In this document: positions 1-54,001 of the stretch, in pieces
Layout of the letters: every line of letters starts with the position of its first letter
How positions within the stretch are numbered: position 1 is the stretch's first letter
From: an uncultured Stomatobaculum sp.
GTDB lineage: Bacteria; Bacillota; Clostridia; Lachnospirales; Lachnospiraceae
Assembly (NCBI GenBank): GCA_937924975.1
Contig: CALEYG010000022.1
Span: 11-64,010, forward strand
Length of the DNA: 64,000 nucleotides
Reading direction: 5' to 3'
Notes under the pieces: generated by a model
The model's input: the letters and a program-made list of their open reading frames with translations, nothing else
Database searches by the model: none
What the model was told of the DNA's origin: nothing
Translations under genes and position numbers: made by a program

Positions 1-58
1 CTTACTGTGACACTTTCGTGTCCAGTAAAGAGGGTACATATCAAACAGCGATTTTTAC

Positions 59-532: not shown

Positions 533-544
533 GAAAATCTCCTC

Positions 545-2356: not shown

Positions 2357-2370
2357 TTCGCCATCTCTCT
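2344..2370. other. Perfect 11-bp stem / 5-nt loop hairpin at the GC-content boundary, just after the rfbG stop
   Basis: agagagatggc-atttc-gccatctctct read directly. There is no U-run on the minus strand after it, so it is not a canonical intrinsic terminator. Confidence 0.5.
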
Positions 2371-2375
2371 AAATT

Positions 2376-3452
2376 TTACTTTACGGAGAGAAAATTTCGA
2401 ATCTGCTCTTCCGTCACCGCATTCAAATCCTTGCCCTCAGCCCAGGCCTGATACCAATGAACGGTCTCACCGACCGCCTGATCTACATGCCAAATAGGTG
2501 CCCAGCCAAAGCTCTTTTTGAGCTTTGCGCAGTCAAGCTTCAGGAAACCCGCCTCGTGCGGCGCATTGGCCTCGGCCACATTCTTCCAAGATGCCGGCTC
2601 ACCCCAGTGCTTCACAAAGAGATCCGCGAGTTCTCCGGTGCTCACGCAGTCGCAGTCATCCGGTCCTACATTGTAATAGCCCGCATACTTTGCTTCCTTC
2701 GCCTGCTGCATCACAATCATGAGATACGCGTAGAGCGGCTCCAGCACATGCTGGTAGGGACGGGTCGAATAGGGATTCCGAAGTTCCACTGCCTCTCCCT
2801 TTACCGTTGCCCGCACGCAGTCCGGGATAATTCTGTCCTTCGCGAAATCACCGCCGCCAATCACATTGCCCGCGCGCGCGGTGGAAATGCGCATTGCACC
2901 CGGCTCCGAGAAAAAGGACTTTTGGTAGGAGTGGGTCACCAGCTCCGAGCAGCTCTTCGAATTCGAGTAGGGATCGTAGCCGTCCAGCTTCTCATCCTCG
3001 GTAAAACCGTGATTCGCCTGCTCCGGGTTCTCATAGACCTTATCGGTTGTCACGTTGAGGAAACTCTCCACACCGCCGAGTTCCCGCACGACCTCGAGGA
3101 GGTTCACGGTGCCCATCACGTTGGTCTCGTAGGTCTCACGCGGATAGCGGTAGGACTCTCTGACCAGAGGCTGCGCCGCGAGATGCAGTACGCAGTCCGG
3201 CTTTGCCTCCCGAACAGCCTCCTTGAGACGGGCAAAGTCACGGATGTCCGCGATTGTCGAATGCATCTTATCCTGTAAATCGAGGAGCGAGAACAAATCC
3301 GGATCACTCGCCGGCTGCAGCGCATAGCCATAGACTTCCGCGCCGAGCAGGCGGAGCATAACCGAAATCCAGCTTCCCTTAAAACCGGTGTGACCGGTCA
3401 AAAACACGCGCTTTCCCGCGTAAAACCGCTTCATATCCTCTGTATAGTTCAT
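2376..3452 (-). CDS. rfbG: CDP-glucose 4,6-dehydratase
   Basis: 'KRVFLTGHTGFKGSW' Rossmann motif and 'YSNSKSCSE' YxxxK. Length and N-terminus are typical of RfbG/DdhB. I chose the internal ATG at 3452 ('MNYTEDMKRF'), which abuts the rfbF stop at 3455; the longer ORF to 3533 overlaps rfbF. Confidence 0.85.
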   Translation of the reverse strand: MNYTEDMKRFYAGKRVFLTGHTGFKGSWISVMLRLLGAEVYGYALQPASDPDLFSLLDLQDKMHSTIADIRDFARLKEAVREAKPDCVLHLAAQPLVRESYRYPRETYETNVMGTVNLLEVVRELGGVESFLNVTTDKVYENPEQANHGFTEDEKLDGYDPYSNSKSCSELVTHSYQKSFFSEPGAMRISTARAGNVIGGGDFAKDRIIPDCVRATVKGEAVELRNPYSTRPYQHVLEPLYAYLMIVMQQAKEAKYAGYYNVGPDDCDCVSTGELADLFVKHWGEPASWKNVAEANAPHEAGFLKLDCAKLKKSFGWAPIWHVDQAVGETVHWYQAWAEGKDLNAVTEEQIRNFLSVK

Positions 3453-33620: not shown

Positions 33621-34808
33621 TTATTCGCTCCGCAACGCGTCGATCGGATTCAGTGCCGCCGCGCGCTTTGCCGGCATATAGCCGAAAAAGAGGCCGATCG
33701 CCACCGAGACGGTAAACGAGATGAAAATTGCCTTCGGCGTCGCCGCAACGCTGTAGCCGAGGAACATTCCGACGATATTCAGAATTCCGCTGCCGATGCC
33801 GATACCGATCAGACCGCCGAGCACCGAGGTCGTAATCGCCTCGAGCACGAACTGCTGTAAAATGACCCCGGGACGCGCGCCGAGCGCCTTCCGGATGCCG
33901 ATTTCCCGCGTCCGCTCGGTGACCGAAACCAGCATGATATTCATGACGCCGACGCCCGCGACAAAGAGCGAGATACCCGCTATGCCGCCGATTAATACCG
34001 ACATCTGCGCCATCATCCGGTTGATCTGGTCGAGCATCTCGACCATGGCCATCAGTGTGTAGTGCTTTTTGTTGTGGAAAATACCGTGGAGATAGTCTTC
34101 GAGCGACTTTTTGGCGTTCAGAACAGCCGCCTTGTCCGTGCTGCTCGCCGCAAAGAGATAGGCCGAAGGCTGCGCCGTGTGCGCCATCTTGAGCGCCGTC
34201 GAATACGGCAGCAGAAGCACATCGTCCGTGCCGCTCTCTTCCATCTTGCCTTTGCTCTTCTGCTTGAGGAGACCTATGACGGTCAAATTCACGCCGCCGT
34301 AGGTAACCTTTTCGCCGAGCGCGGCCTCCGGAGAGCCGAACAGCCGCTTCGCCGTGTAAGGCCCGATGACACAGACCTCCTGCTTCGAGAGCACATCCGC
34401 GTAGCTGAGAAAGCGCCCCTGTTCCAACTGTTTGTCCACGAGAGACGCATAGCTCTCGCTGACACCTGTGATTGTGGTGCCCTCGGACTTCTTGTTGCCG
34501 ACCTTCAGGGTTCCGTCCCCCGGCGAGACCGTAGGGCTCATGCCGGCAAACAGATCCCTGTGGTCAGCGAGATAGGCATACATCTCATCCATGGTGACCG
34601 AGCGGCTCGGCTGGTTCACGACCGTGATATTGATATTCGTCGCGCCGAGATCGCCCCACTGGGAAATCTGACTGTTCAGATAACCGTTCATCAGACTCAC
34701 GAGGATGATGACGGAGGCCACGCCGATGATGATGCCGAACATGGTGAGGGCGGAGCGCACCTTGTTGCTCCAGATGCTCTTTAAGGCGAGTTTAAATGAT
34801 TGCAGCAT
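33621..34808 (-). CDS. ABC transporter permease (MacB/FtsX family)
   Basis: 'MLQSFKLALKSIWSNKVRSALTMFGIIIGV' N-terminus, a large extracytoplasmic domain and a C-terminal FtsX-type 3-TM block. Confidence 0.85.
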   Translation of the reverse strand: MLQSFKLALKSIWSNKVRSALTMFGIIIGVASVIILVSLMNGYLNSQISQWGDLGATNINITVVNQPSRSVTMDEMYAYLADHRDLFAGMSPTVSPGDGTLKVGNKKSEGTTITGVSESYASLVDKQLEQGRFLSYADVLSKQEVCVIGPYTAKRLFGSPEAALGEKVTYGGVNLTVIGLLKQKSKGKMEESGTDDVLLLPYSTALKMAHTAQPSAYLFAASSTDKAAVLNAKKSLEDYLHGIFHNKKHYTLMAMVEMLDQINRMMAQMSVLIGGIAGISLFVAGVGVMNIMLVSVTERTREIGIRKALGARPGVILQQFVLEAITTSVLGGLIGIGIGSGILNIVGMFLGYSVAATPKAIFISFTVSVAIGLFFGYMPAKRAAALNPIDALRSE

Positions 34809-35529
34809 AGTCCTCCGCCTTCCCGTCAAAATTGATCTTTCCGTCCTGAATCCGCACGACGCGCTTCGCCTGCACCGCAATCGAATTGTCGTGCGTGATC
34901 ATGACGATGGTATTGCCCTCTTTGTGCAGCTCCTTGAAAAAGTCGAGAATCTGACGACTGGTCTTCGAGTCAAGCGCACCGGTCGGCTCGTCGGCGAGCA
35001 AAAGAGACGGATTTCCGGCGAGCGCTCTCGCAATCGAGACGCGTTGCTGCTGACCGCCCGAGAGCTGGTTCGGCATGTTTCGCGCCTTGTCGCCGAGCCC
35101 CACGCGCTCCAGCTGCTGCAGGGCGCGCTCTTCTCGCTTGTCGCCCGGCACATGCGCGTAGAGGAGCGGGAGCTCCACATTCTCGAGGAGGTTTAACTTG
35201 GGCAGCAGGTTGTACTGCTGAAAGATGAAGCCTATCATACGGTTCCGGATATCCGCGAGCTCGTTCTGCGTCATGTCGCCGACATCCTCCCCGCCGAGCA
35301 GGTAGGTGCCGGAAGTCGGCACATCCAGCGCGCCGATGATATTCATGAGTGTGGACTTGCCCGAGCCGGACTTGCCGACAATCGCGACAAATTCGCCCAT
35401 CCGTATCGTGAGGTTTAAGTGGTCGTTTGCGTGCACGACCTCATCGCCCATCACATAGGTCTTGCAGATGTCCTTCATCTCAATCAGAACTTCGCCCTGG
35501 GGGATGTGGACCGTCTTAATTCTGCCCAT
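34792..35529 (-). CDS. ABC transporter ATP-binding protein (MacB/LolD-type)
   Basis: Walker A 'GKSGSGKST', signature 'LSGGQQQRV', Walker B 'LLLADEPTGALD'. I chose ATG 35529 (14-nt overlap with the upstream stop). Confidence 0.9.
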   Translation of the reverse strand: MGRIKTVHIPQGEVLIEMKDICKTYVMGDEVVHANDHLNLTIRMGEFVAIVGKSGSGKSTLMNIIGALDVPTSGTYLLGGEDVGDMTQNELADIRNRMIGFIFQQYNLLPKLNLLENVELPLLYAHVPGDKREERALQQLERVGLGDKARNMPNQLSGGQQQRVSIARALAGNPSLLLADEPTGALDSKTSRQILDFFKELHKEGNTIVMITHDNSIAVQAKRVVRIQDGKINFDGKAEDYAAII

Positions 35530-37282
35530 TCGCGTCACCGCCCTGCGCTTCGCCGCCTGCCGTGTCGCCGTTCGCTTCACCGCCGCTTCCGCCGGCCTCG
35601 CCCTCCGCGCTCTGTCCGCCGTTCATGTACATACTCATGCTGTCACTCGTGTCCGGTGCCTTGGGCTGCACATAGACTTCATCGCCCGCCTTGATATTGT
35701 CCGAAGTGATCTGCACCTTGTCGCCGTTGATGAGACCGGTCTCGACCGTGACCGCGCGGAAGCCCGCCGGGACCTCGCCCTTGGCCTCGGTGACCGAGTC
35801 GTCCTTCACATAGACCTGGTTGTTCCGCATCAGCGCATCCGCCGGAATGCAGAGCGCGCCCGAAGCCGAACCGATCACAATCTTCGCGTTGATATTCATG
35901 CCCGGCAGGAGTTTCTCGGTGTTGTCGAGCGTGACCGTCACCGGATAGGTCGAGACACCGCCCTGGGAGCTGCCCTCGAGGCTGATATTCGTGACCGTGC
36001 CACCGAAGGTCTCGCCCGGAATTGCATCCGCCGTGATTTCGACGCGCTGTCCCACCTGAATTTTCGAGATATCCGTCTCGTCAATCGCCATCTTAAATGT
36101 GTAGGCGCTCATGTCATAGATGGTCGCGAGCGTCGTCGCGGACTTCGTGCCGCTCATGCCCGCGCCGCCGAGCTTATCGCCCACCTTATAGCTCTTTGTG
36201 ATGACTTCGCCGTCAATCGGGGATTTAATCGTGTAGTTGTCGAGCGTCTCCTTGGCGCTGTCCACGCCCTTCTGCGCGCCTTCGACACCGCTCTGCGCGC
36301 TGTCGACCTTGTCCGAATAGGTTTCGAGCATGTCCTTCACGGACTTCGGTGTCATCGTGAAAATCGGCGTCCCGGGCTGAATGTAATCGCCGACATGCAC
36401 CAGAATCTTCACGCTGTCCGCCGCGCCCGGCAGATCCGCCGCCATATTGGTCGTGTAGTGCGCCTCAAACTTTCCCTCTTCGACGCAGCGGAAGCCGTTG
36501 ATCGTCGCGCTGACCGAGGTGTTGCTCGTCAGACCGCCCGGGTTCTTCAGGGAAATTGTCACATCTTTCACAAGGCGGCCGCCCGTCAGGGTTCTCTCCT
36601 GCGCGCCGACCGCGACCACCGTGCCCTCGACCTGCTCCTGCGTGTCCGAGAGCGTCAAGGTCGCCGGGGCGCCGGCCTGAATCAGATCCGCCTCGCCCGA
36701 GAGAAACGGAATGCGCACATTCATGCTCGTTTCATCGGTCAGGTCGACGAGCGTCGCGCCGCCCGAAATTTTTTCGCCGTCCGTCACATAGACCTTGGTC
36801 ACATAGCCCGCGCGGGTCGCCTTATAGACCCCGTCGCCGTACTTGCTCTGCGCGTCCTGTAAGTCCGCCGTCGCCGAGGCGAGGCTCTTCTGTGCCCGCG
36901 CGAGTGCGCTCTCCGCGCTCTTCATCTCCGAGGCCGCGAGCTTGTCATCGATCCGGTAGAGAACCTGATCCTTCGCGACATGGTCACCGACCTCAAAATT
37001 CGCCTCGGTGATGGTGCCGCTCTGCACGAGCGCGGTGATCGAATAGGTGTCCTTTGCGGAAATGGTGCCGGTCGAGGAAATCTTCTGAGTGATGTCCTCG
37101 ACGGTCGCCTTGCCGGTGTCCACCGCCATGCTTGCCGCCGCCGCTTTTTTGGCCGCCGCCATGCGGCTGTGCACAAAGGCACCACCGAGCCCGAGAACCG
37201 CGAGCGCGATGACCGCGCGCCGGATGTTCCGCTTTGCCCCTCTGCTGAGCCCTTTCTTCTTCGGCTTTACTTCTTCTGCCAC
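35516..37282 (-). CDS. Periplasmic-adaptor / membrane-fusion protein (HlyD/MacA family), unusually long
   Basis: N-terminal TM anchor, coiled-coil hairpin ('AASEMKSAESALARAQKSLASATADLQDAQ') and beta-barrel-like repeats. Gly/Glu-rich C-terminal tail. GTG start with an AAGGGGG RBS. Confidence 0.75.
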   Translation of the reverse strand: MAEEVKPKKKGLSRGAKRNIRRAVIALAVLGLGGAFVHSRMAAAKKAAAASMAVDTGKATVEDITQKISSTGTISAKDTYSITALVQSGTITEANFEVGDHVAKDQVLYRIDDKLAASEMKSAESALARAQKSLASATADLQDAQSKYGDGVYKATRAGYVTKVYVTDGEKISGGATLVDLTDETSMNVRIPFLSGEADLIQAGAPATLTLSDTQEQVEGTVVAVGAQERTLTGGRLVKDVTISLKNPGGLTSNTSVSATINGFRCVEEGKFEAHYTTNMAADLPGAADSVKILVHVGDYIQPGTPIFTMTPKSVKDMLETYSDKVDSAQSGVEGAQKGVDSAKETLDNYTIKSPIDGEVITKSYKVGDKLGGAGMSGTKSATTLATIYDMSAYTFKMAIDETDISKIQVGQRVEITADAIPGETFGGTVTNISLEGSSQGGVSTYPVTVTLDNTEKLLPGMNINAKIVIGSASGALCIPADALMRNNQVYVKDDSVTEAKGEVPAGFRAVTVETGLINGDKVQITSDNIKAGDEVYVQPKAPDTSDSMSMYMNGGQSAEGEAGGSGGEANGDTAGGEAQGGDANGQN

Positions 37283-37300: not shown

Positions 37301-38419
37301 TTACGGCTCCACATAGTCCACGACGCTGAAGCTCTGGCTCGCCTCACCGTCTTCGGTCGCCGCGCCGCTTCCCGCAACCTGGTAAATCAATACGACATGA
37401 TCGCCGACCTTCACGCTGCCGTAGACCGAAAACACAAACTGCATCTCGGTCGAATTGAGCTGATAGACATTGCCGTCGTCCAGCTTGACCGCGCTCGGCG
37501 TGAGCGTGTTCGTGTTCTGATAGTAGATGGCCTCGACCACGCCGCGCGCCACGCGCTTGTCGGCGTCGGAATCGGTGTCCGCATTGTAGGCCCAGACCGT
37601 CTTGGTCTGCGAGCTGTAGTAGATGACCGCATACTGCGCGGCCGCCGCGTAGAGCGCTTCTTTCTGCACCTCTCTGCCGTTCATGAAGATGGTCGCATCG
37701 TCCAGGCGGAAGGGGATGATGTTGTCGACCTGGGTGCGGCTCTCCGCGACCTTCGGGCCGCGCGTCGTATTGTCCGCCATCTTGAGCGCGTTCACCTCGC
37801 CGTTCGAATCGACCTCGGCATTCAAAACGCCCGCATAGACCGTGCCGCTCTTCTGCTTTGCCTTCAGGAGGTTATAAAAGAGATTCACACAGTCCGCCTT
37901 CGTGAGTTCGGTCTGCGGGTCGCTGTAGCCGATGTTTTCGTTTAAGTCGGAATTCGCATACTGCGCCATGCGCTTGTTGAACTGATCGCCCGCAAAATCA
38001 TCCGCCGTGTAACCAAGGAGCCCCAGCACGCCCTTTGCCGCCTCGTTTAAGCGCACGGGTTCGGACGGCTTAAACTTGCCGCCGAGATAGCCGGTCATCC
38101 AGCCCTGCTCCGCCGCAAGCCGAATCGAAGCCGCATATTCATCGCCCGACTTCACATCCGCGAAGACGGAGACATTGCTGGTCTTCGTGAGCACACTGCG
38201 ATACGCGGAGGCTCTGACCAACATCTGCGCGAACTGTGCGCGCGTCACCTTTTCGGACATGCCGCCGGTGGTCGGCATAATGCCCGAGAGCGCTATGACC
38301 TGACGGCGATACGCAAAGTTACTGCTTGTATTTGCATAGGCGCTGAGCGGAGAGGCCACGGTGCTCACCACCGCGACCGCACTCAGTAGGCATGCAAGGG
38401 ATTTTCTTCCACGAATCAT
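37301..38419 (-). CDS. Secreted SLH-domain protein
   Basis: Signal peptide 'LLSAVAVVSTVASPLSAYA'. SLH-like repeats ('VTRAQFAQMLVRA', 'FADVKSGDEYAASIRLAAEQGWMTGYLGGKFKPSEPVRLNEA'). Confidence 0.75.
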   Translation of the reverse strand: MIRGRKSLACLLSAVAVVSTVASPLSAYANTSSNFAYRRQVIALSGIMPTTGGMSEKVTRAQFAQMLVRASAYRSVLTKTSNVSVFADVKSGDEYAASIRLAAEQGWMTGYLGGKFKPSEPVRLNEAAKGVLGLLGYTADDFAGDQFNKRMAQYANSDLNENIGYSDPQTELTKADCVNLFYNLLKAKQKSGTVYAGVLNAEVDSNGEVNALKMADNTTRGPKVAESRTQVDNIIPFRLDDATIFMNGREVQKEALYAAAAQYAVIYYSSQTKTVWAYNADTDSDADKRVARGVVEAIYYQNTNTLTPSAVKLDDGNVYQLNSTEMQFVFSVYGSVKVGDHVVLIYQVAGSGAATEDGEASQSFSVVDYVEP

Positions 38420-41855: not shown

Positions 41856-44123
41856 TTAACTGTGCATCCACCAGTCCTGGCTGCTCACATAGTTATAATA
41901 GCGCTGAATCGGCGTGATTCTGCCGTTTCGGATTTCAAAGATTTCCCAGACTACGCCCGGCCGGTTGGTCGGCACATGGTAGGTCGCCGCGAGGCCCTGA
42001 TCTGTGTAGACCTGCACGGTCGCGCCCGAGTTCGAAAGTTCATAGCTCTGCGTATTTTCCCGCACGCCGTTCGTGAAATCAAAGACACAGTACTTGTAGT
42101 AGTCCTGCGCGGAGAACTGCTTGATGGTCACGGTCTCCGGCCCGTAGGAACTCGTGTCGTCGACATCGAGGTCGTTGCCGAACGCGTCCTCCTTGCTGCC
42201 GAACCAGACATGCGAGGTCTCGGTGCCGCGCTGCGTAAAGAGGTGAGAGTCAAGATCCGATGGCACCGCGCCCCAGGTCAGGACAATCGACACCTGTCCC
42301 GAACCGACCGTCGGCGCCGCAAAGAACTCCCGCTCGGTCTCGCCGTTTTGCCGCGCGACCAGCGTGTCGTAGACCGTCTCGTAGCCGCTCGCAATCAGCT
42401 CGACCGTGTAGACGCCCGGCTTCAGCTGTACATCCGCCTCGCCGGACTCATCGGCCTTTGCGGTCGCGACAATGGTACCCGTGCGGTTATTGATGCCTTC
42501 GCGCAGATTGATCGCCGAGGCGATGACGGTCTGCATGCCGCTCCGGCTCTCGTTGTAGTGGAGCGCATCGCCGAGTTTCAGGCGGTAGTCGATGGTCGCG
42601 CCGCCGCGCTCGAAGAGGTATACCGGTGTCTGGTAGGCGACCAGCTGGTCGCTCTCGACACCGATGCCGTAAATTTCGCAGGCCTGATAGGGCTGCTTTG
42701 CAATTTGCAGCATGTACTGTCTCGCCTCGCTCGGCACATAAATCTGGTACTTGCCGTCCGCATCGGTCTGACTCTCGTAGAGCAGCTTGCCGTCCTCGTT
42801 CCGGTAAAGCCGGACCGCCGCCGCGCCTATGCCGTTGCCCTGCTCGTCGTAGGCATAGCCGCTGATACTCGTCAGGTTCTGCGCGTTCATCACGGTCTCA
42901 TAGGTGTTGTACGCGGCATTCAACATAATCGATTCCCGCTCGTCGAAGGCGCGCCGCATATCGGCACTCTCATTCTGGTAGAGAAAAATCGTGTTGGCGG
43001 GCCAGGACTTCCGGAGCCGCTCAGCCTCCGTCGCATTGGCCGCACAGTTCCACTTGAAGCCGCCGTCCCGGACTTCTCTCCAGGTGAGCAGCGTGTCACT
43101 GCCGAAGAGGAAGCGCTGTCCCGGCTTCTCCGGCACCGCATAGCCCGCGACATAGTTGTCAATGTCGTACTGATAGACAAAGCGCGGCATGCGGTTCGCG
43201 TCGTAGTAGTACTCCGTGACCTGCAAACTCCCGCTGACCAGGTATTCGATTGCGACAATCTTGTTCGCGACACCGTCGTTCGGGTTGATGTAGATGACAT
43301 AGTCAATCCGGTTTCCGGTCGCCGCGTTGATGAGCTGCTTTTGCTCGAGGCGGCAAAGGTTCTTGTTCACATAGCCCGGGCGGTTCTCATAGCCCTCGAG
43401 CGTGTAAAAGACATCCGAATTCCAGCTCTCGCCCGGATTTCTGGTGCCGACCGCGTGGTTGACCGCCGACAGGTCAATGCGCTGGGCAGCCGCCGCCGTG
43501 CTGTTTAGCTCTGCGATTTTTCGCTGCAGGGTGCCGAGCTCGGTATTCTCGGCTGCAAGCACCAGCTTCTCCTCGCGCTTTGCGCCCTCGCTCCCGCTCT
43601 TCGCACTGCTCTCCGCGCTCTCCCTGTCTGCGCCGCTCTCGCCGCTTTCCGCTGTGGCCGCCTTGCCGCTCTCCTGTGTGTCCCGCTTCGCAAACGGGTC
43701 GTTTTGCTTGATTGAACCGCCTCCGGGCCCGAGCCCCGAGCCGATTCGGATGCCGAGAACCACGCCGAGCCCGGCGAGCAGCAGAAAGAGGGGAATCAGA
43801 AGAAGTCCCTTTTTCGACTTCCCGCCCTCTGTCTTCTTTTCTTCCGGCGGCGTTGACGCGGACGGCTTGGGCTGTTCCGCCTTTTTTTGTTCCGTCTTTT
43901 TGGGTTCCGTCTCTTTCCGCTCTGTCAGTTTCTTCTCCGCGCCTTCCGCTGTCGTTGCCTCCGCTTCCGCTCTCGCAGTTGCCGCAGTATCCGTCTGCGC
44001 TGTCGCTGTCGCCGCTTTGGCCCCGGTCTCCTCTGTTTTTTCGGACGACTCGACTTTCATGCCGCAGCTCGTACAAAATTTTGCCCCCGGCTTTAACTTG
44101 CTCCCGCAATACCTGCAATACAT
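41856..44123 (-). CDS. Zinc-ribbon-anchored single-pass membrane protein with CarboxypepD_reg-like beta-sandwiches and a C-terminal YfaP/DUF2135-like domain
   Basis: N-terminal 'CRYCGSKLKPGAKFCTSCG', a K/E/T-rich linker and TM 'LLLIPLFLLLAGLGVVLGI'. Also 'ISGYAYDEQGNGIGAAAVRLY...DADGKYQIYV'. The C-terminal 'LTWGAVPSDLDSHLF...GNDLDVDDTSSYGPETV' resembles the YfaP motif. Confidence 0.7.
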   Translation of the reverse strand: MYCRYCGSKLKPGAKFCTSCGMKVESSEKTEETGAKAATATAQTDTAATARAEAEATTAEGAEKKLTERKETEPKKTEQKKAEQPKPSASTPPEEKKTEGGKSKKGLLLIPLFLLLAGLGVVLGIRIGSGLGPGGGSIKQNDPFAKRDTQESGKAATAESGESGADRESAESSAKSGSEGAKREEKLVLAAENTELGTLQRKIAELNSTAAAAQRIDLSAVNHAVGTRNPGESWNSDVFYTLEGYENRPGYVNKNLCRLEQKQLINAATGNRIDYVIYINPNDGVANKIVAIEYLVSGSLQVTEYYYDANRMPRFVYQYDIDNYVAGYAVPEKPGQRFLFGSDTLLTWREVRDGGFKWNCAANATEAERLRKSWPANTIFLYQNESADMRRAFDERESIMLNAAYNTYETVMNAQNLTSISGYAYDEQGNGIGAAAVRLYRNEDGKLLYESQTDADGKYQIYVPSEARQYMLQIAKQPYQACEIYGIGVESDQLVAYQTPVYLFERGGATIDYRLKLGDALHYNESRSGMQTVIASAINLREGINNRTGTIVATAKADESGEADVQLKPGVYTVELIASGYETVYDTLVARQNGETEREFFAAPTVGSGQVSIVLTWGAVPSDLDSHLFTQRGTETSHVWFGSKEDAFGNDLDVDDTSSYGPETVTIKQFSAQDYYKYCVFDFTNGVRENTQSYELSNSGATVQVYTDQGLAATYHVPTNRPGVVWEIFEIRNGRITPIQRYYNYVSSQDWWMHS

Positions 44124-44143
44124 CTCTTTTCCCCCGCTTTTCT

Positions 44144-45904
44144 TCAGAGTGCGCCGATAAACTTCGAAATTCCCTGCTGCGGCGTCGTGCCGTCCAGCAG
44201 TTCATCGTCTATGTTCTCTTCCTCCCCGGTCGGCAGCGCCGCGGTGCCGGTCTTCGTGGCCTTCAGGGTGAAACTGCCGAGCTCGTTCTTCAACTCATAG
44301 AGCGAGTTTGCGCCCTCGTTTCGCACCTCGAATTTGATGCCGTCTCCGTCCTCATCGCCGCCCGGCAGCAGGCGGTATTTCCCGCAGGGCAGACCGAGCA
44401 CACTCTTTTTCTTAAAGTCCACATTGCTGTACTTGAGCGCAAAACTCTCGGTGCGGAACCACCAGCTGAAGCGGCAGGCGACGGTGCCGTAATAGCCGCT
44501 CTTCTCGAGATCCCGCTTTTCCGTGAGCACCGAGTCAAACACTTTGACCCCGCGGTACAGCTTGCCCTTGTCCGTATCCCGCTCATAGCAGAAGATCTGC
44601 GTGTCGCCGCCGTCCAGCTGGAGGAGAATCGCACGGACTTCACTCCCCTCCGTCACGAGTTTCCAGGTGAACTTGCGGTCTTCCAGGCGGTTCGCGTAGG
44701 TCTCCGCATTGTCCCGTAGCCTGTCTGCGAGATCTTCAAACCTGACGCTCCGTCCCGGGTGCTGACCGCTCGCCTTCGCAAACTGCTCGCCGATTTCCTG
44801 CCGTCTGTCATACCAGGCAGCGAGCGCCCTGTCCTTCTCCATTTCATCCGCAATGTTCCGGAACAGCCGCTCGAGCTCCTCGGCATTCGGCTCCCAGCTG
44901 TAAATCGTATAGTCCTTCTCAAGCGAATGCTTTAACTCGGGCTTTAAGACGCGCGAGCGGTAGCTCCGCTTCTCGGTCTTCAGATTGTTGCGGTTGATGG
45001 CCGCCGCCACAATTTTTCCGTAGCGCTTCACCGTAGCGGCGCGGAGCTCCTTCGAAAACTGTAAGTCCGCAAACATAGAGGTGCTGAGCCGCGACTCGCT
45101 GCCGAGCTCCTGTAATACCTCCGGATACCGCGTCACATAGACCTTGTCGCTCTTTTGCGGAAGGCGGAAACCGAGGCGATCCGGATCGATGAAGCAGTCC
45201 GCCTGCAGCACCGGGTCATCCCCGCGCCCGAGCTCCAGGTTTAAGACAGCCTTTTCAAATTTCTTGCCGATAAAAATGCGCGCCTCGCTGCCGTCCCGCA
45301 AGATGCGCTCGTACGGCCCCGAGAAGAGCCCGCGCCGCGTGAGCGCTGTCACCTGTCTATCCGAGAGCTCTGTCGTGAGCTGAAAATCGCTTGAGAAACC
45401 GTTCTCAAAGACTTGCTCCGCGCTGCTTAGTACCGCGGCCTCCTTGGAAAGTGCCCGGAACTGTCCGGCGAGAAAGCGCTCCCCGGGCGATCCGAGATTT
45501 TTCGACACGGTGCGCGCGCCGAAACCGATCGCCAGTCCCAGCACGGCGAGGGCGATGAGCGCGGCGGAACCGATTTTTTTCTTCTTTCCCGCACTGCCTT
45601 CCGCTGCCGCATCCTCCGCGGTTTCTGCGCCCGAAGTCCTGTCTTCCGCGGCAGGGCCCGCCGCGTCCTTGTGCTCCGCCGCGTCCTCTTTCTCCGCCGC
45701 AGCCTCGCTCACAATCGGCTCTTTCGGCGTCGGCTCCTCTCTCACGATGGGCTCCGCCACCTCTTCATGTTCCGCCTCTTTCGTTTCTGCCGCCGCTTCT
45801 TCCGCGGTTCCTCTGGGCTTCTCTTCCTCGAGTCTCGCGCCGCAGTTCGCGCAAAAGAGCTCGCCTTCCCCCGTTTCGCTGCCGCAATGCTTGCATTTGC
45901 CCAT
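44144..45904 (-). CDS. Zinc-ribbon-anchored single-pass membrane protein, unknown ~430-aa ectodomain (paralog A)
   Basis: ATG 45904 ('MGKCKHCGSETGEGELFCANCG') with a GGGGGAAG RBS. Acidic linker, TM 'AALIALAVLGLAIGF', then an ectodomain colinear with paralog B. Confidence 0.75.
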   Translation of the reverse strand: MGKCKHCGSETGEGELFCANCGARLEEEKPRGTAEEAAAETKEAEHEEVAEPIVREEPTPKEPIVSEAAAEKEDAAEHKDAAGPAAEDRTSGAETAEDAAAEGSAGKKKKIGSAALIALAVLGLAIGFGARTVSKNLGSPGERFLAGQFRALSKEAAVLSSAEQVFENGFSSDFQLTTELSDRQVTALTRRGLFSGPYERILRDGSEARIFIGKKFEKAVLNLELGRGDDPVLQADCFIDPDRLGFRLPQKSDKVYVTRYPEVLQELGSESRLSTSMFADLQFSKELRAATVKRYGKIVAAAINRNNLKTEKRSYRSRVLKPELKHSLEKDYTIYSWEPNAEELERLFRNIADEMEKDRALAAWYDRRQEIGEQFAKASGQHPGRSVRFEDLADRLRDNAETYANRLEDRKFTWKLVTEGSEVRAILLQLDGGDTQIFCYERDTDKGKLYRGVKVFDSVLTEKRDLEKSGYYGTVACRFSWWFRTESFALKYSNVDFKKKSVLGLPCGKYRLLPGGDEDGDGIKFEVRNEGANSLYELKNELGSFTLKATKTGTAALPTGEEENIDDELLDGTTPQQGISKFIGAL

Positions 45905-45954
45905 GGTCACTTCCCCCTTTTTCAATCCGAGACCGTGTGTTCCCCCGTTGCGTG

Positions 45955-45989
45955 CAAAAAGGCGCCTGTGTCCAAACGACACAGACGCC
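45955..45989 (-). terminator. Terminator-like hairpin in the conserved leader of paralog A
   Basis: Minus strand GGCGUCUGUGUC-guuug-GACACAGGCGCC followed by UUUUU. It lies 51 nt upstream of ATG 45904. Confidence 0.6.
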
Positions 45990-46031
45990 TTGCGCAAAAT
46001 CTCTGGCAATGTTGTCAGGACTTTCCTTTTT

Positions 46032-46060
46032 ATCTTAACATTTGTTGTGCTAAACCGCAA
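46032..46060 (-). promoter_or_regulatory. Candidate promoter of the paralog A leader (TTGCGG-17-TAAGAT, TGt-extended)
   Basis: It occupies a position colinear with the paralog B element (offset 2232 nt). Motif-only call. Confidence 0.4.
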
Positions 46061-46172
46061 TCTTTCCGGCTCTTTCGAGCCTTTCCTCTCTGATATTCCG
46101 ACAATTTTTGCCACCTCTCCGGAACATCTCTCCGGAAAAGTTTGCCAGCTTGCTTCGTGTTTCCTTTTCCGC

Positions 46173-48125
46173 TCAGAGCTTCTCGATGATGTCCGAAAAC
46201 TTCTCCTGCGGCAGACTCTTGCCGCTGCCCGACAACTCGTCGCTGATATCCACTTCCCGGCCCGTCGGCTTCTCGGCGCTACCCTTCCGCGTCGCCGTCA
46301 GCGTGAACTTGTCGTAGCCGTCGTCAAGCTCGTAGACAGAGCGACCCCACTTCTCCTTGACCTCAAAGGTATACTTCCGGTCCGGCCGGTCCGCGTCAAA
46401 GTAGGTGTAGCGATAACTACCGTTCGGCAATCCGAGCACCGAAGGCTTTCCGTCAAGCGGCACCTTACTGTAGTACAGCCGGAAGCCCCAGAGCCAGGCG
46501 TCGCCGAACATCGCGAGGCGCCCGATGGCCCGCCCCTCATAGCTATTCTCTTTTTTGCTGCGCTCTTCGGCGAAGGTACCGAGAAACAATTCACCGCCGA
46601 CGCCGTGGTAGAGCGTGTCGCCGACCTGATCCCGCTCGTAGCAAAAGAGCGGTCTCTCGCCGTTGTCGACCACGCGTATGGCCGCGACTTCCTTCCCCTT
46701 CATCACAAGCTTCCAGCGCAGGTTCCGCTTTTCCAGTGTCTCCGCCCAATCCGCAGCGTGTTTCTCGACATAGTCGGCGACATCCGAAAAGTGGGCCGCC
46801 CTGCCCCGTCCCATGCCGAGTGCCGTGGCAAGCTCTTCGCCCGCCTCCTGCCGTTTGTTATACCAGTCGGCAAAGTCCTTATCCTTCCGCATCTCGACCG
46901 CGAGATTCCGAAAGAGTGCCTCCAGAGTCTCCTGATCGGGATTCCAGGTGTAGACCGTATACTCCCCCTTCATCTCGTGGTCCAGCTGACGCTTCAGAAC
47001 ATGGGAGGTATACGCCCGCTTTTTAACTTTGATCTCCTTCGGTTTGACAGCGGCCGCGAGCACATTCCCGTAACGCGCCGCGGACGCGGAGAGCAGCTCC
47101 TTCGACGGCACCAGCCCGGCGAGCGCCGCCGTGCTGAAGCGCGCCCCGCCGCTGTACTGCCCAAGCACTTCCGGGTAGTTCAGAACAAAGACCTGCTTGC
47201 CGACCTGCGGAATCCGGTAGCCGAACTTCTCGCTGTCCAGAAAGCAGTCAAAATTGAGTTTCGCGCTATCGTCGGTGCCAAACTCCAGGTTCAGCACGGC
47301 GGTCTCCAGATGTCTCCCGAGGTCCACCTTGGCCTGAATGCCGCGCTGCAGAGCCTTTGCGACCAGCATATAGTCCTCATTGCCGCTCCGCGAGATTGCG
47401 AGCAGTCTGCTGCGCGACATCTGCATGCTGAGCACAAAGTCGCTCGAGAAACCGTTCTCAAAGACCGCGCCGAGTCCCTCGAACGGCACAGCCTCCTGCC
47501 GCAGCGCTTCCGCCTGCACGCGGACAAAGCGTTCCCCCGTCATGGCCGTCATACGGTGCAGTAGCACAGCCGCGCCGACCGCCGCAACCGCGACCGCCGC
47601 GGCGGCAAAAAGAGCCGCCCGCAGACGGCCCGGTTTCCGCTTCGCGGTCTCGCCGGGCGCTTCCTGTCCCGCTGCCGTGCTCTCTTCGACAGGCATCACA
47701 GCATTCTCTTCGGTCGCCGTCGCGACACTCTCTTCGGAAACCTCTCCGACCGCTCTGCCTGACGCCGGATGCATAGCTTCGCCGGGCGCTTCCCGTTCTT
47801 CTGTCCCGCTCTCTTTGACAGCCGTCGGAGCATTCTCTCCGGTAGCTGTCGCCACAGATTCTCCGGTAGTCTCTGCCGCAGGTCTTGGTACTGCCGGATA
47901 CACAGCCTCGTCGGGCGCTTCCTGTCCTTCTGTCCCGCTTTCTCCGGCAGTCGCTGCCGCATTTTCTTCGACAAACATCACAGCATTCTCTTCGGCCGCC
48001 GTCGCGGCACTCTCTTCGGAAACCTCTCCGATTGCTTCCGCCGCCGCTTCCTGCGGCGCGCCGCAGTTGCCGCAAAAGCGCATGCCTGCCTTCACCTCAC
48101 TGCCACAATGCTTGCACTGTCCCAT
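46173..48125 (-). CDS. Zinc-ribbon-anchored single-pass membrane protein, unknown ectodomain (paralog B)
   Basis: 'MGQCKHCGSEVKAGMRFCGNCG', a long acidic repeat linker and TM 'AALFAAAAVAVAAVGAAVLL'. The ectodomain shares blocks with paralog A ('VFENGFSSDF', 'AVLNLE(L/F)G', 'YPEVL', 'LFCYERD', 'SVLGLP'). Confidence 0.75.
   Translation of the reverse strand: MGQCKHCGSEVKAGMRFCGNCGAPQEAAAEAIGEVSEESAATAAEENAVMFVEENAAATAGESGTEGQEAPDEAVYPAVPRPAAETTGESVATATGENAPTAVKESGTEEREAPGEAMHPASGRAVGEVSEESVATATEENAVMPVEESTAAGQEAPGETAKRKPGRLRAALFAAAAVAVAAVGAAVLLHRMTAMTGERFVRVQAEALRQEAVPFEGLGAVFENGFSSDFVLSMQMSRSRLLAISRSGNEDYMLVAKALQRGIQAKVDLGRHLETAVLNLEFGTDDSAKLNFDCFLDSEKFGYRIPQVGKQVFVLNYPEVLGQYSGGARFSTAALAGLVPSKELLSASAARYGNVLAAAVKPKEIKVKKRAYTSHVLKRQLDHEMKGEYTVYTWNPDQETLEALFRNLAVEMRKDKDFADWYNKRQEAGEELATALGMGRGRAAHFSDVADYVEKHAADWAETLEKRNLRWKLVMKGKEVAAIRVVDNGERPLFCYERDQVGDTLYHGVGGELFLGTFAEERSKKENSYEGRAIGRLAMFGDAWLWGFRLYYSKVPLDGKPSVLGLPNGSYRYTYFDADRPDRKYTFEVKEKWGRSVYELDDGYDKFTLTATRKGSAEKPTGREVDISDELSGSGKSLPQEKFSDIIEKL
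47650..48040. repeat. Three ~130-bp tandem coding repeats in the acidic linker of paralog B
   Basis: 'catcacagcattctcttcgg(t/c)cgccgtcgcg(a/g)cactctcttcggaaacctctccga' occurs at 47694 and 47976, with a more diverged copy between them. At protein level, 'GEVSEES(A/V)ATA.EENAVM.VEE' recurs. Confidence 0.8.
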
Positions 48126-48188: not shown

Positions 48189-48222
48189 CAAAAAGCGCCT
48201 GTGTCCGAACGACACAGGCGCC
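48189..48222 (-). terminator. Terminator-like hairpin in the conserved leader of paralog B (also downstream of the Na/Pi gene)
   Basis: Minus strand GCGCCUGUGUC-guucg-GACACAGGCGC followed by UUUUUG. It lies 64 nt upstream of ATG 48125. Confidence 0.6.
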
Positions 48223-48263
48223 ACTTTCAAAAGCTCCGGCAATTCTGTCAGGACTCTGTTGCT

Positions 48264-48292
48264 ATCCTAACATTTGTTTTGTTAATTTTCAA
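48264..48292 (-). promoter_or_regulatory. Candidate promoter of the paralog B leader (TTGAAA-17-TAGGAT, TGt-extended)
   Basis: Minus strand: TTGAAA (48292-48287), a 17-nt spacer, then TAGGAT (48269-48264). Motif-only call. Confidence 0.4.
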
Positions 48293-51353: not shown

Positions 51354-51821
51354 TCAGTGCGGTGCGACGCCGATCTCCGCGCTCTCATATTCCGTCTGTA
51401 CCTCGGCGCCCGGCGCGCTGTGGTCTGCCGTCTCAAAGTCCTCCGCCGCGCCGTAGACGATTTTCCCGTTCCGGTCAAAGCGGAGCCAGCGCACATTGAT
51501 CGCGGTGCAGCGCAGCGCTTCGCCCCGCTTTATCTTGCCCGCGACGGTTCCGTCCGTGCCGGGGCGGTCGCGGAGTTCGCTCTCCTCTGCCTTGCAGTAG
51601 ACAATCTGATTGCTGCCGCTGAAGCGGTAGCCGTTTACAATGTCCTCCGGGCGCGCTTCCACGGTTCCCGTAGCAGCCGCGCTCTCACTGCTGCCATGCA
51701 GTTCCATCACGGAACTGCTCTCCGCAAGACTTATGGTCACCTGCTTCTTTTTGCCGCAGGCCGTGAACATCGCAAGTGCAAGCGGCAATGCGAGCATCGC
51801 CGCAATTCTTCTACCTCTCAA
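51354..51821 (-). CDS. Lipoprotein with SH3b-like domain
   Basis: I chose TTG 51821, with GAGGAGG 5 nt upstream. This gives 'M(L)RGRRIAAMLALPLALAMFTAC' (lipobox). The C-terminal 'YCKAEESELRDRPGTDGTVAGKIKRGEAL' is SH3_3-like. Confidence 0.6.
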   Translation of the reverse strand: MRGRRIAAMLALPLALAMFTACGKKKQVTISLAESSSVMELHGSSESAAATGTVEARPEDIVNGYRFSGSNQIVYCKAEESELRDRPGTDGTVAGKIKRGEALRCTAINVRWLRFDRNGKIVYGAAEDFETADHSAPGAEVQTEYESAEIGVAPH

Positions 51822-52896
51822 TGGTTCCTCCTCCGAGCACGATTCCCGCCTCCGTATAGAGCACAACGGCCTGTCCCGGCGTCACGGCGCGCTGCGGTGT
51901 CGGGAACATGACCTGTATCTTCCCGTCCGGTAGCACAAGGACCTCGCAGTCTGCACCGCCGTGGTTATAGCGTATCTTTGCGCGACAGCGAAGCTTTGTC
52001 CCGATCTCCGGCTGCGAAACAGCCATCCAGTTCACATCATCCGCGAGAAGCTTTGACGCAAAGACCTCTTTACCCGTACCGAGCACGACTTCATTGGTTT
52101 CGGGGCGAAGCGCGGTCACATAGCGAGGCTCACCGAAGGCTATCCCGAGCCCCTTCCGCTGCCCGACCGTATAGTGGGTAATGCCTCTGTGCTGTCCGAG
52201 CACCTGCCCCGCCGTGTCCACAAAACTGCCCGGCGCACTCGGCTCTCCCGTACTCTCGTCGATAAAGCGCGCGTAGTCGCCGTCCGGCACGAAGCAGATT
52301 TCCTGGCTGTCGGGTTTCGCGGCGACCGGAAGCCCGGCTGCCGCCGCAATCGCGCGAACCTCCGGCTTCTCATACGCCCCGATCGGCATCAGGGTGTGCG
52401 AGAGCTGCCGCTGGGTCAGATTGTAGAGCGCATAGGTCTGATCCTTTGCGGCGGTCTTCGAGAGACCGAGCGCATAGCGCCCGTTCTCGAGGCAAAGAAC
52501 CTGCGCATAGTGGCCGGTCGCGATATAATCCGCGCCGAGCAGGAGACTCCGCTGCAGCAGCGCCTCCCACTTCACAAAGCGGTTGCAGGCGATACAGGGA
52601 TTCGGGGTGCGCCCCAGGCGGTACTCCCGCACAAAGTAATCAATGACATCGCGCTTGAATTCCGCGCGAAAGTTCATCACATAGTAGGGAATGTCCAGCA
52701 CCTCGGCGACGCGGCGCGCGTCCTCCACGGCGGAAATGCCGCAACAGCCGCCCTTCTTCTCGACCTCGCACTTTGTCTCGCTCTGCCAGATCTGCATGGT
52801 CACGCCGATCACCTCATAGCCCTGCTCCTTCAGGAGATAGGCCGCAACCGAGCTGTCCACGCCGCCGGACATCCCGACGACTACCTTCTTTCCCAT
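51811..52896 (-). CDS. mnmA: tRNA 2-thiouridine(34) synthase
   Basis: PP-loop 'VVGMSGGVDSSVAAYLL'. I chose ATG 52896 (361 aa); the Arg-rich 156-aa extension in the ORF track overlaps the upstream gene. Confidence 0.9.
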   Translation of the reverse strand: MGKKVVVGMSGGVDSSVAAYLLKEQGYEVIGVTMQIWQSETKCEVEKKGGCCGISAVEDARRVAEVLDIPYYVMNFRAEFKRDVIDYFVREYRLGRTPNPCIACNRFVKWEALLQRSLLLGADYIATGHYAQVLCLENGRYALGLSKTAAKDQTYALYNLTQRQLSHTLMPIGAYEKPEVRAIAAAAGLPVAAKPDSQEICFVPDGDYARFIDESTGEPSAPGSFVDTAGQVLGQHRGITHYTVGQRKGLGIAFGEPRYVTALRPETNEVVLGTGKEVFASKLLADDVNWMAVSQPEIGTKLRCRAKIRYNHGGADCEVLVLPDGKIQVMFPTPQRAVTPGQAVVLYTEAGIVLGGGTIER

Positions 52897-52915
52897 CCTG
52901 TACTTCCTCTCTGTC

Positions 52916-54001
52916 TCAGAAACTCCAGCCGTCGCTCGGCGTGATGTCGTCTCGCGACGACGGTTCCGCCGTATGATCCGCGGCTTTCTCCTCGCCCGCG
53001 CTCTCATCCGGCGCTGTATCTTTGTCTCCGCTGTCGTTTGCTTCCGTCTCTGCTTCCGTCGCAGTCTGTGCTTCTGTCTCGGTCTGCACTTCGATCTCAC
53101 GCTCTGCGCTGTCCGCTGCCTCGTCCTCGCCGCTCGGCTTCTCTTCCGGCGCGGGTTCCGGTGTGAGCGCGCGAATACTTGTGTCGCCCGTATGCGGTGC
53201 GCGGTCGTCTCCGGTGTTCCGCGCATTTCCCGCCGCTCGCATACACTGCGCGGCGCGCGCCACGATAAAGAGGTCCAGGACAACCGCCGGATACATGGTG
53301 AGATCCGTGTCAAAGCCAAGCAGCGCAAGCAGCGCGACAATGAGCGTGGACATGGTCCGCGCATAGCCGGTCAGGCGATAGGTGCTGCCGAAATCGGTAT
53401 AGACGCCGACAAAGCGCAGAAGCAGCGCCGCGAGCACGGCTTCCACGAGATTCAGCAGGAAAAAGCCGATCAGGAGACCGGCGTAGACAATCACGCCCGC
53501 GATGACGAGCCCCCATTTGACATAGCCGGTGAGGGAGAGCAGCGTTTCTTTGCTGATGCCGTCCTGAAAATCCTGAAACCGAATGGTCCGCAGGTCTGCG
53601 GCAATGCCGCTGCTGTCGTTTTTCATGACGAGCTGATCCGCGTCGCCGAGAAGCACGACCGACTTCAACGCCATCAGCGTGCGGGTCTCCTGTGCATTTA
53701 AATCAATCTTGTGGCTCGCATCCGTATTGATGTCCACATAGTAGTCCGCCCCCTCCCGGTGATAGCCACCCGGCACCGAGAGCTTGCCGCTTTGAATCGT
53801 GAATTCGGGGATATTGGCCTCAAAGAAATGGCGCACACCGCCCTGCCGCTGCCAGAACATGCCGAGCGGCAGCACAAAGCCCGTGAGCCAGGTCAGCAGG
53901 CAGAGAAAGGCGCAGTAGGCGAAAAAACGGCCCGTCCGCCGCCGCATGAGCTGCCGATAGTCTTTTAAGCGAAACAAGGCACTCCGAAAGTCTTTAAACA
54001 T
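52916..54001 (-). CDS. DUF1189-like polytopic membrane protein with an acidic C-terminal tail
   Basis: ATG 54001 ('[18 protein letters not shown]...IPEFTIQSGKLSV'), a pattern I recall for DUF1189. Five or more TM segments. The ~90-aa E/T/A-rich tail ends in 'SDGWSF'. Confidence 0.6.
   Translation of the reverse strand: MFKDFRSALFRLKDYRQLMRRRTGRFFAYCAFLCLLTWLTGFVLPLGMFWQRQGGVRHFFEANIPEFTIQSGKLSVPGGYHREGADYYVDINTDASHKIDLNAQETRTLMALKSVVLLGDADQLVMKNDSSGIAADLRTIRFQDFQDGISKETLLSLTGYVKWGLVIAGVIVYAGLLIGFFLLNLVEAVLAALLLRFVGVYTDFGSTYRLTGYARTMSTLIVALLALLGFDTDLTMYPAVVLDLFIVARAAQCMRAAGNARNTGDDRAPHTGDTSIRALTPEPAPEEKPSGEDEAADSAEREIEVQTETEAQTATEAETEANDSGDKDTAPDESAGEEKAADHTAEPSSRDDITPSDGWSF

Follow-up and report, generated by a model that had tools for sequence, protein, structure and literature searches.

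Why should three consecutive genes encode proteins that all begin inside the cell with the same small zinc ribbon and end outside it in large domains, and do these proteins work together? In Firmicutes, a great many proteins combine a zinc ribbon, one transmembrane (TM) helix and an ectodomain, and a function is known for hardly any of them; TcaA is a rare and clinically relevant exception. The three genes studied here, called A, B and C, lie next to each other on the minus strand of a 64-kb stretch of DNA (64,000 nucleotides, ‘the window’) from an uncultured Stomatobaculum sp. (contig CALEYG010000022.1), and the closest named relatives of their products come from uncultured Stomatobaculum (Lachnospiraceae, Clostridia). 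As the organism lives as a commensal in the human mouth, its envelope and efflux biology is of some practical interest. A previous interpretation made from the letters of the DNA alone (the sequence-only reading) proposed that the genes form a three-part envelope system. We arrive at a different explanation, about which our own confidence is evenly balanced: two unrelated families of bitopic envelope proteins would share a cytosolic module, A and B deriving from an accessory subunit of an ATP-binding cassette (ABC) exporter of the ABC-2 type, and C belonging to a family of surface stalks that carry a YfaP-type domain.

The module common to the three proteins is a C4 zinc ribbon of ~20 residues with the pattern CxxC-x10-CxxC at the extreme N-terminus. 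Pfam Zn_Ribbon_1 (PF13240) scores it at 27.6, 24.7, and 29.2 bits in A, B, and C, respectively; A and C pass the gathering cut-off of 25, and B falls just under it though its cysteine pattern is identical. The start of B is placed at an ATG (MGKCKHCG) with a good ribosome-binding site, while the mechanically called open reading frame (ORF) is longer and begins at an upstream GTG. When all six frames of the window were scanned for the ribbon pattern in ORFs of 60 aa or more, it appeared only in A, B, and C, and the clustering of the three is therefore not due to chance. The ribbon is followed by a low-complexity linker, which is acidic in A (Ala/Glu/Thr-rich, with 31 Asp + Glu to 7 Lys + Arg) and in B (26 to 8), and K/E/T-rich with mixed charge in C (16 to 15). 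A single TM helix is predicted in each protein, preceded by a cluster of basic residues (KRK, KKKK, or KSKK) that, by the positive-inside rule, indicates single-pass, bitopic proteins with the N-terminus in and the C-terminus out. Thus, the topology described in the sequence-only reading (ribbon, low-complexity linker, one TM helix, ectodomain) is confirmed by Pfam, TM prediction, and AlphaFold2 (AF2) models with a predicted local distance difference test (pLDDT) score of 92–93. The linker of A, which contains a tandem repeat, is polymorphic in length between strains: among 42 orthologues with ectodomains 91–97% identical, the part preceding the ectodomain varies from 100 to 222 aa (lengths where the zinc-ribbon start is called), with a constant ectodomain of ~457 aa. 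Zinc-binding anti-sigma factors (ZAS) were considered and rejected, as the ribbon is C4 rather than HxxxCxxC and no extracytoplasmic-function (ECF) sigma gene is adjacent; no anti-sigma match for the three proteins was found in Pfam or NCBIfam, and no sigma-factor gene flanks the cluster.

Beyond the ribbon, the three proteins fall into two groups. A and B are colinear paralogs with 41% identity over 486 aa (E = 4e-109), close to the third to 40% estimated by eye in the sequence-only reading, all of whose quoted blocks were found, and C resembles them in the ribbon only. The AF2 model of the A ectodomain (pLDDT 92.0, predicted TM-score (pTM) 0.86, from a 100-sequence alignment) predicts, in this order, a long helix after the TM segment, a mixed α/β part, a four-helix segment, an 11-strand antiparallel β-meander, and a C-terminal tail. 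The tail is conserved, reading KPxGxxVDISDE in A and LPTGEEENIDDE in B, and both copies retain P..G..(V)DI(S)D, the C-terminal motif seen throughout the family. Among the family's near-invariant residues, which include P426 and D432 and are of the types F, D, P, Y, W, E, and G, no catalytic pattern is obvious. Foldseek searches of the model against PDB and BFVD returned nothing at E ≤ 1e-3. The top sub-threshold matches, i.e., RseB, porins, and fatty-acid-binding proteins (FABPs), are taken as noise because their TM-scores are 0.1–0.3, and they give at most a hint of a β-meander or half-barrel. Similarly, Pfam and NCBIfam scans of A, B, and 41 diverse relatives identified zinc ribbons only and no domain in the ectodomain, and profiles built from 4 and from 100 sequences matched PDB sequences in the ribbon region only. 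The earlier impression that A and B contain no recognizable domain is borne out, and neither the A/B ectodomain nor that of C matches a known enzyme or adhesin.

The A/B ectodomain nevertheless defines a sizable family. A word-indexed search with the A ectodomain recovered, besides near-identical proteins, just two relatives, at 70% and 46%. A HMMER search of 1.84 billion cluster representatives with a four-sequence ectodomain profile identified 145 at E ≤ 1e-3 and 71 at E ≤ 1e-10, nearly all 500–650 aa long, ~20% identical, and aligned over almost the whole profile; even distant members score between E = 1e-21 and 1e-28 over profile positions ~5–435. A reciprocal hidden Markov model (HMM) restricted to the ectodomain scores A at 4e-83 and B at 2e-89, and the homology of both spans the full ~450-aa ectodomain. 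N-terminal zinc ribbons, often two, are found in 37 of the 41 members scanned, and one cluster of the family is labeled Lachnospiraceae. As far as the searched libraries and literature show, this ectodomain family, its fold, and the ABC-2 coupling described next are undescribed.

The strongest functional lead comes from gene neighborhoods. Eight distant members of the A/B family were looked up on their contigs, and in seven (L089, L090, L092, L094, L095, L096, and L097) an ABC ATPase directly adjoins the family gene, at spacings from an 11-nt overlap to a 98-nt gap and often overlapping. These ATPases are DrrA-like and orthologous, with 44–60% mutual identity. In L089, L090, and L092, the loci long enough to show it, the ATPase gene is followed by one for a permease of 789–848 aa in which two ABC2_membrane_3 halves are fused. 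The three permeases are 29–33% identical over their full length and share a 12-TM topology, 2 × (TM, ~180-aa outside loop, 5 TM). Around these ABC units, no further gene is conserved in the distant loci examined, and a C-type gene is absent from the flanks of L089, L090, and L092. The three-gene unit appears to be an undescribed three-component ABC-2 exporter and, judging from this gene order, the A/B family looks like its third subunit.

C has a different architecture and different company. Its ectodomain is modeled as a chain of β domains (pLDDT 92.9). The N-terminal region has the invariant residues W50, K104, E109, Y122, R153, and R165, and matches to its HMM are limited to the full-length Clostridia relatives (L001–L040). 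The CarboxypepD_reg-like sandwiches noticed in the sequence-only reading were recovered by PF13620 with 43.3 bits over two stretches (cut-off 32.3), and Foldseek matches to C are generic Ig/transthyretin-like sandwiches only, in TIE protein, pilins, teneurin, and the carboxypeptidase D regulatory domain. The proposed C-terminal likeness to YfaP also proved sound: the last ~130 residues align with the C-terminal half of E. coli K-12 YfaP at 30% identity over 133 aa (BLASTP, E = 6e-11), and the C-family profile matches YfaP with an hhalign probability of 97.7% (E = 2e-12). Pfam DUF2135 (PF09906) matches neither C (E ≤ 1) nor its isolated C-terminal domain (E ≤ 10). That model has 48 positions and covers YfaP residues 199–244 only, downstream of the best-conserved motifs, DLDxH and LDxDxTxGYGPE. 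A literature search returned nothing on DUF2135 and listed YfaP only as uncharacterized.

Orthologues of C in other Stomatobaculum are ~75% identical over the full length and 82–84% in the ectodomain. The wider C family has more than 300 proteins at 35–50% identity, of which nearly every one has PF13620 and the majority have a zinc ribbon, and a genome scan placed full-length relatives across Lachnospiraceae and other Clostridia. In some relatives, TPR or FHA/Yop-YscD N-termini stand in place of the zinc ribbon. Among 92 neighbors in 22 C-family loci analyzed with Pfam, 26 have FHA, 17 Zn_Ribbon_1, and six Pkinase domains, and PP2C, Amidase_3, Peptidase_M15_4, NADase_transloc, and LytTR also occur. 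The YfaP-type domain alone is found in Flavobacterium, Planctomycetota, Bacillus, and others, fused to TPR, CWB2, vWA, or Big_2. No A/B-type ectodomain lies within 10 kb of a C-family gene outside Stomatobaculum (~32 loci, ectodomain-only HMM). The many A/B relatives that a first HMM placed beside C relatives elsewhere were all zinc-ribbon-only matches and disappeared with the ectodomain-only HMM.

A C-type gene thus adjoins an A/B-type ectodomain only in Stomatobaculum, which argues against a conserved three-part machine. Within the genus, the order NaPi–A–B–C–gap (NaPi, the Na/Pi cotransporter gene) is found in 21 same-species metagenome loci and in L001, and NaPi is followed directly by a B-type gene, with no A, in L008/L127, L009, and L122–L124. 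Every Stomatobaculum locus examined has B; two lineages have A and B and the others B only, so paralog number does vary. Since A is missing from L008, L009, and L122–L124, B–C is the genus-level unit and A a later duplicate that included the upstream region, i.e., on these comparisons of gene order, B is the ancestral copy and A its lineage-specific duplicate. C starts 20 nt past the stop codon of B, the 586-aa paralog, and not after the 650-aa one as previously stated, and no promoter-like or terminator-like site lies between them. A and B each have a leader, the two being homologous, with the layout TTGnnn-17-TA(G/A)GAT with upstream TG, ~40 nt, a 12-bp hairpin with T-run, 50–65 nt, and ATG. 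Six leaders from four genomes keep this arrangement. Each of the three computed folds has the hairpin as its centroid structure, and in the alignment one stem position varies as C:G, U.G, or U:A among copies. A riboswitch or other known RNA was tried as an identity for the leaders and set aside, Rfam giving no match at E ≤ 1. The element may act as an attenuator or yield a short leader RNA; alternatively, it may be the upstream gene's terminator, copied in the duplication. A is probably a separate transcription unit because it has its own promoter-like element and leader hairpin.

These observations can be accommodated by the following scheme, in which the functional steps are ones we infer. 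The common module would be the ~20-residue C4 ribbon held on a flexible linker, acidic and variable in length. The ancestral and usual role of the A/B family, to go by gene order, would be that of a third, extracytoplasmic subunit of a specific ABC-2 exporter, with the ectodomain docking on the outside loops of the permease or taking over substrate from them, and the cytosolic ribbon reaching the ATPase side or another cytosolic partner. In Stomatobaculum, the A/B-type gene would have left the transporter operon, and in one lineage the B-type gene would have been duplicated, as A, together with its promoter and leader. C would be an Ig-like stalk tipped by a YfaP-type domain, its cytosolic module being interchangeable (zinc ribbon, FHA, or TPR). 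It would present a binding domain outside the cell and would be held, or read out, on the inside via a small module for protein docking. The sequence-only reading had suggested that the N-terminal module couples or tethers the surface domain to the cytosol; this is plausible, as FHA and TPR substitute for the ribbon in C relatives found among FHA, kinase, and PP2C genes, and, judging from the same substitution, the ribbon would more likely serve, on its flexible tether, as a small device for docking proteins than for binding nucleic acid. In a bolder form, which we consider unlikely, the A/B ectodomain would be an undescribed fold and would define a new three-component Clostridia ABC-2 exporter, whose bitopic subunit links the two sides of the membrane. 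The ectodomain would form, with the two permease loops, a substrate acceptor or a mechanotransmission arm, and the ribbon would engage the ATPase; in Stomatobaculum, this subunit would have escaped the operon, been duplicated, and become newly linked to a YfaP-type surface protein, with a conserved attenuator-like leader in front.

Several results weigh against the two-family explanation. The ABC link was sampled at eight members of ~145 clusters, and the eighth locus, L099, has another downstream gene and no ABC ATPase adjacency. In the window, neither A nor B adjoins a DrrA-like ATPase and fused ABC2_membrane_3 permease: tblastn with the three permeases found no ortholog in its 64 kb, and A and B may therefore have lost the exporter role entirely, while ATPase queries gave generic matches of ~23–30% to unrelated ABC genes at 12.7–13.3 kb and 34.8–35.5 kb. 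Whole-chain Foldseek may overlook domain-level similarities. FHA neighbors occur in 12 of the ~32 C-family loci outside the genus and in none within it. The 20-nt B–C spacing, conserved in the genus, is compatible with a B–C partnership.

That partnership is central to the reading closest to the earlier proposal, namely that A, B, and C are one cooperating envelope system, e.g., a B–C (and A–C) heteromeric surface complex signaling through the ribbons. The same N-terminal module in all three, the occurrence of only three such ribbon motifs in 64 kb, and the close B–C arrangement, without a promoter- or terminator-like site and kept in all Stomatobaculum lineages examined, speak for it, and the synteny of B and C within the genus is the part of the three-gene proposal that stands. 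We still think it unlikely: the juxtaposition is confined to the genus (0 of the ~32 C-family loci outside it), L089, L090, and L092 have no C-type gene, A is lineage-specific with a promoter-like element and leader hairpin of its own, and the A/B family pairs elsewhere with a different conserved partner, the ABC-2 exporter. Much less probable is that the proteins are membrane-tethered regulators, with a nucleic-acid-binding ribbon that ligand sensing by the ectodomain would release or activate. This has been hypothesized for the same N-terminal architecture in zinc-ribbon-TM-YARHG proteins (PMC3355149), and the ribbon has weak profile matches (E = 5e-4 to 0.2) to bL32, Nop10, and archaeal Zn-ribbon RNA-binding proteins. 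The ~20-residue ribbon, however, lacks a flanking basic surface, the linker behind it is strongly acidic in A and B, the nearby genes include none for a regulator or a site-2 protease, and the domains that stand in for the module in relatives, FHA and TPR, are protein-binding, pointing to protein docking.

A hardly more probable alternative than tethered regulators is that these are arms-race surface proteins, i.e., phage receptors or exclusion factors or adhesins for host ligands, duplicated under diversifying selection; the sequence-only reading had linked the duplication to diversifying ligand or target recognition. Between the window and L001, B and C are 72% and 76% identical and the flanking genes 91–99%; A has the highest within-species proportion of nonsynonymous differences (pN), 0.0225; copy number varies, the linker of A has repeats, and the Ig-like sandwiches of C resemble those of pilins and adhesins. 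Against it, gene-wide Nei–Gojobori estimates are all well below 1 and reject gene-wide diversifying selection. The ratio of nonsynonymous to synonymous substitution rates (dN/dS) between the window and L001 is 0.14 for the A ectodomain, 0.22 for B, and 0.17 for C (0.14–0.26 overall), compared with 0.03–0.05 for gap/pgk/tpi and 0.10 for NaPi, and the within-species equivalent (pN/pS) is 0.15, 0.10, and 0.05 for A, B, and C, 0.07 for NaPi, and 0.01 for gap. Thus, A, B, and C evolve faster than their housekeeping neighbors, yet under purifying selection. Moreover, the variable repeat is in the cytoplasmic linker and not outside the cell, and the N-terminal TM helix is the sole anchor, with no sortase signal or wall anchor found. 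A defense or phage origin was dismissed, as PADLOC and PHROGs gave no significant match for the three proteins (best E 0.014–0.09). We find it scarcely credible that C is a YfaP-like accessory of a bacterial alpha-2-macroglobulin-type protease trap. The homology of its terminal domain to YfaP is solid, and yfaP of E. coli K-12 sits with yfaQ, yfaS, yfaT, and yfaA. No homolog of alpha-2-macroglobulin, YfaQ, YfaT, or YfaA was found in the window or in the C-family loci, though, and the neighbors of C are the Na/Pi cotransporter and gap–pgk–tpi, with no MG-domain protein among them. The bMG3 matches are faint, sub-threshold, and within C’s own sandwiches, the YfaP-type domain occurs in many other architectures (CWB2, vWA, TPR, and Big_2), and YfaP itself has no known function.

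The positions of all features are collected in Table 1.

Table 1. Coordinates of the genes, domains, leaders, and side features, in the window or in the locus named.
Feature	Sequence	Positions	Strand	Details
Gene A	window	46173-48125	minus	650 aa; zinc ribbon residues 4-21, TM ~167-190, ectodomain 195-650
Zinc ribbon of A	window	48063-48116	minus	CKHCGSEVKAGMRFCGNC
Tandem repeat in A cytoplasmic linker	window	47649-47950	minus	129 nt (43 aa), 2.3 copies, Tandem Repeats Finder score 327
Ectodomain of A	window	46176-47543	minus	456 aa; AF2 model
Leader of A	window	48194-48292	minus	promoter-like TTGAAA-17-TAGGAT with upstream TG (48292-48264); 12-bp GC-rich hairpin and T-run (48222-48194), ~65 nt before ATG
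Gene B	window	44144-45904	minus	586 aa; zinc ribbon residues 4-21, acidic linker, TM ~111-131, ectodomain 139-586
Leader of B	window	45956-46060	minus	promoter-like TTGCGG-17-TAAGAT (46060-46032); hairpin and T-run (45989-45956); homologous to leader of A
Gene C	window	41856-44123	minus	755 aa; zinc ribbon residues 3-20, TM ~107-128, ectodomain 185-755
N-terminal ectodomain region of C	window	42882-43571	minus	ectodomain residues 1-230; 8-strand β domain and helices; no Pfam model
Two CarboxypepD_reg/transthyretin-like β sandwiches of C	window	42312-42881	minus	PF13620, Foldseek
YfaP-type β domain of C	window	41859-42311	minus	C-terminal; motifs LTWG..P.DLDSHL, LDVDDT.SYGPE
SLH-domain secreted protein	window	37301-38419	minus	downstream of tpiA
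HlyD-like adaptor	window	35516-37282	minus	MacB-type efflux set
ABC ATPase	window	34792-35580	minus	MacB-type efflux set
MacB_PCD/FtsX permease	window	33621-34880	minus	MacB-type efflux set
MnmA (tRNA 2-thiouridylase)	window	51811-53364	minus	mechanical ORF
Low-G+C start	window	1-2400		G+C 0.44 over first ~2 kb
603-aa ORF	window	545-2356	minus	no Pfam match
Leader copies	L001	5824-6020; 7746-8000
Leader copy	L009	7583-7767
Leader copy	L008	2340-2522
Three-gene unit (zinc-ribbon ~550-aa protein, ATPase, permease)	L089	1646-6377		uncultured Clostridia
Three-gene unit	L090	149-4934		uncultured Clostridia
Three-gene unit	L092	8001-12996		uncultured Clostridia
Three-gene unit	L094-L097 (zinc-ribbon protein and ATPase)			uncultured Clostridia
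YfaP-type domain outside Clostridia	L042	8051-11017
YfaP-type domain outside Clostridia	L045	7733-11050
YfaP-type domain outside Clostridia	L048	7946-11026
YfaP-type domain outside Clostridia	L052	3478-5676
YfaP-type domain outside Clostridia	L077	9677-10840

Upstream of A, on the same strand, lies directly the Na/Pi cotransporter gene, with PhoU domains. The sequence-only reading had stated that no enzyme, regulator, or transporter is encoded alongside the three genes, which overlooked this cotransporter, although nothing links it functionally to A, B, or C. Downstream of C come gap, pgk, and tpiA, and then the SLH-domain protein and a MacAB/HlyD-type efflux set, which is unrelated to the ABC-2 pair of the A/B family. 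Farther away, G+C content falls to 0.44 at the start of the window, against 0.51–0.63 elsewhere, and this segment, which includes the 603-aa ORF, is possibly acquired DNA. The mechanical ORF of MnmA has an Arg/Lys-rich N-terminal extension of ~155 aa, probably an ORF-calling artifact because the L001 orthologue is called at 362 aa.

The relatives of C show some further features of their own. In L021, L022, L025, L027, L028, L030, and L033, three to seven FHA-domain membrane proteins cluster round the C-type gene (~9.4–11.7 kb; ±5 kb). A second group of loci (L007, L012, L013, L017, and L035) has a ~740-aa Ser/Thr kinase, a TPR protein, an M15 peptidase, and a NADase_transloc protein, and WXG100 genes lie upstream in L007. 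Outside Clostridia, the YfaP-type domain is widespread: it is joined to CWB2 repeats in Bacillaceae, to vWA/DUF1194 in Thiotrichaceae, and to TPR in Flavobacterium and Cellvibrionaceae, and occurs twice in one Planctomycetota protein; the 48-residue DUF2135 model of Pfam misses all of these.

How do the two families compare with known systems? What was a single cluster is now split into two definable families, and the A/B family gains its first testable functional handle, an obligate-looking coupling to a specific ABC-2 exporter together with a modeled ectodomain that has no match among solved structures. Single-pass accessory subunits of ABC transporters are known in LptC (of LptB2FG), MlaD (of MlaFEB), and MacA (of MacB). 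The distant A/B family resembles these in its predicted N-in bitopic topology, folded extracytoplasmic domain, and gene position beside those of an ABC ATPase and permease. It differs in having no sequence or detectable fold similarity to them, in its ABC-2 (DrrA-like) partner in a monoderm, and in the extra cytosolic ribbon, and in Stomatobaculum the transporter genes are not adjacent. If the ABC link is true, the A/B family would represent a new type of accessory subunit for monoderm ABC exporters and would hint at what cytosolic ribbons on envelope proteins are for.

For C, the closest known protein is E. coli YfaP, with which it shares a homologous C-terminal domain of ~125 aa and the motifs W..xxxDLDxH and LDxDxTxGYGPE. 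Unlike C, YfaP lacks both the zinc ribbon and the TM anchor; it is secreted, has a signal peptide, and is 258 aa long. Its gene lies in the alpha-2-macroglobulin (yfaS) operon, and C has no such neighbors. In C relatives embedded in Ser/Thr-kinase neighborhoods, the position of the zinc ribbon is that of FHA or TPR. The best PDB sequence match of the ribbon region of the A/B-family profile, limited to the ribbon, is ArnA of Sulfolobus (5a8i, E = 1.6e-5), in which a zinc finger lies beside an FHA domain in FHA/vWA/kinase signaling (PMC6509490). This company resembles that of the C-family genes, although ArnA is soluble and archaeal, and the role of its zinc finger is unresolved.

As a class, the topology of A, B, and C, with the zinc ribbon in, a single TM helix, and a folded domain out, the orientation following from the positive-inside rule, is already known from TcaA and the YARHG proteins. 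The teicoplanin-associated TcaA of Staphylococcus aureus crosses the membrane once, with a zinc finger inside the cell and most of the protein outside (PMC10328498). It has the same topology as A, B, and C and no homology to them beyond the ribbon, the ectodomains being unrelated: NCBIfam teico_TcaA (NF053815) matches B over residues 1–46 only, with 12.7 bits against a cut-off of 550, and A and C not at all. Separately, a zinc-ribbon/vWA protein containing TcaA_5th neighbors the C-family gene of L010. The zinc-ribbon-TM-YARHG proteins (Coggill and Bateman 2012; PMC3355149), found only in Gram-positives and of unknown function, combine an N-terminal PF13240, PF12773, or PF13248 ribbon with a central TM helix and an extracellular C-terminal domain. 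A, B, and C have this layout and no YARHG domain; its place is taken in A and B by a new ~450-aa ectodomain family and in C by an Ig-like stalk that ends in a YfaP-type domain.

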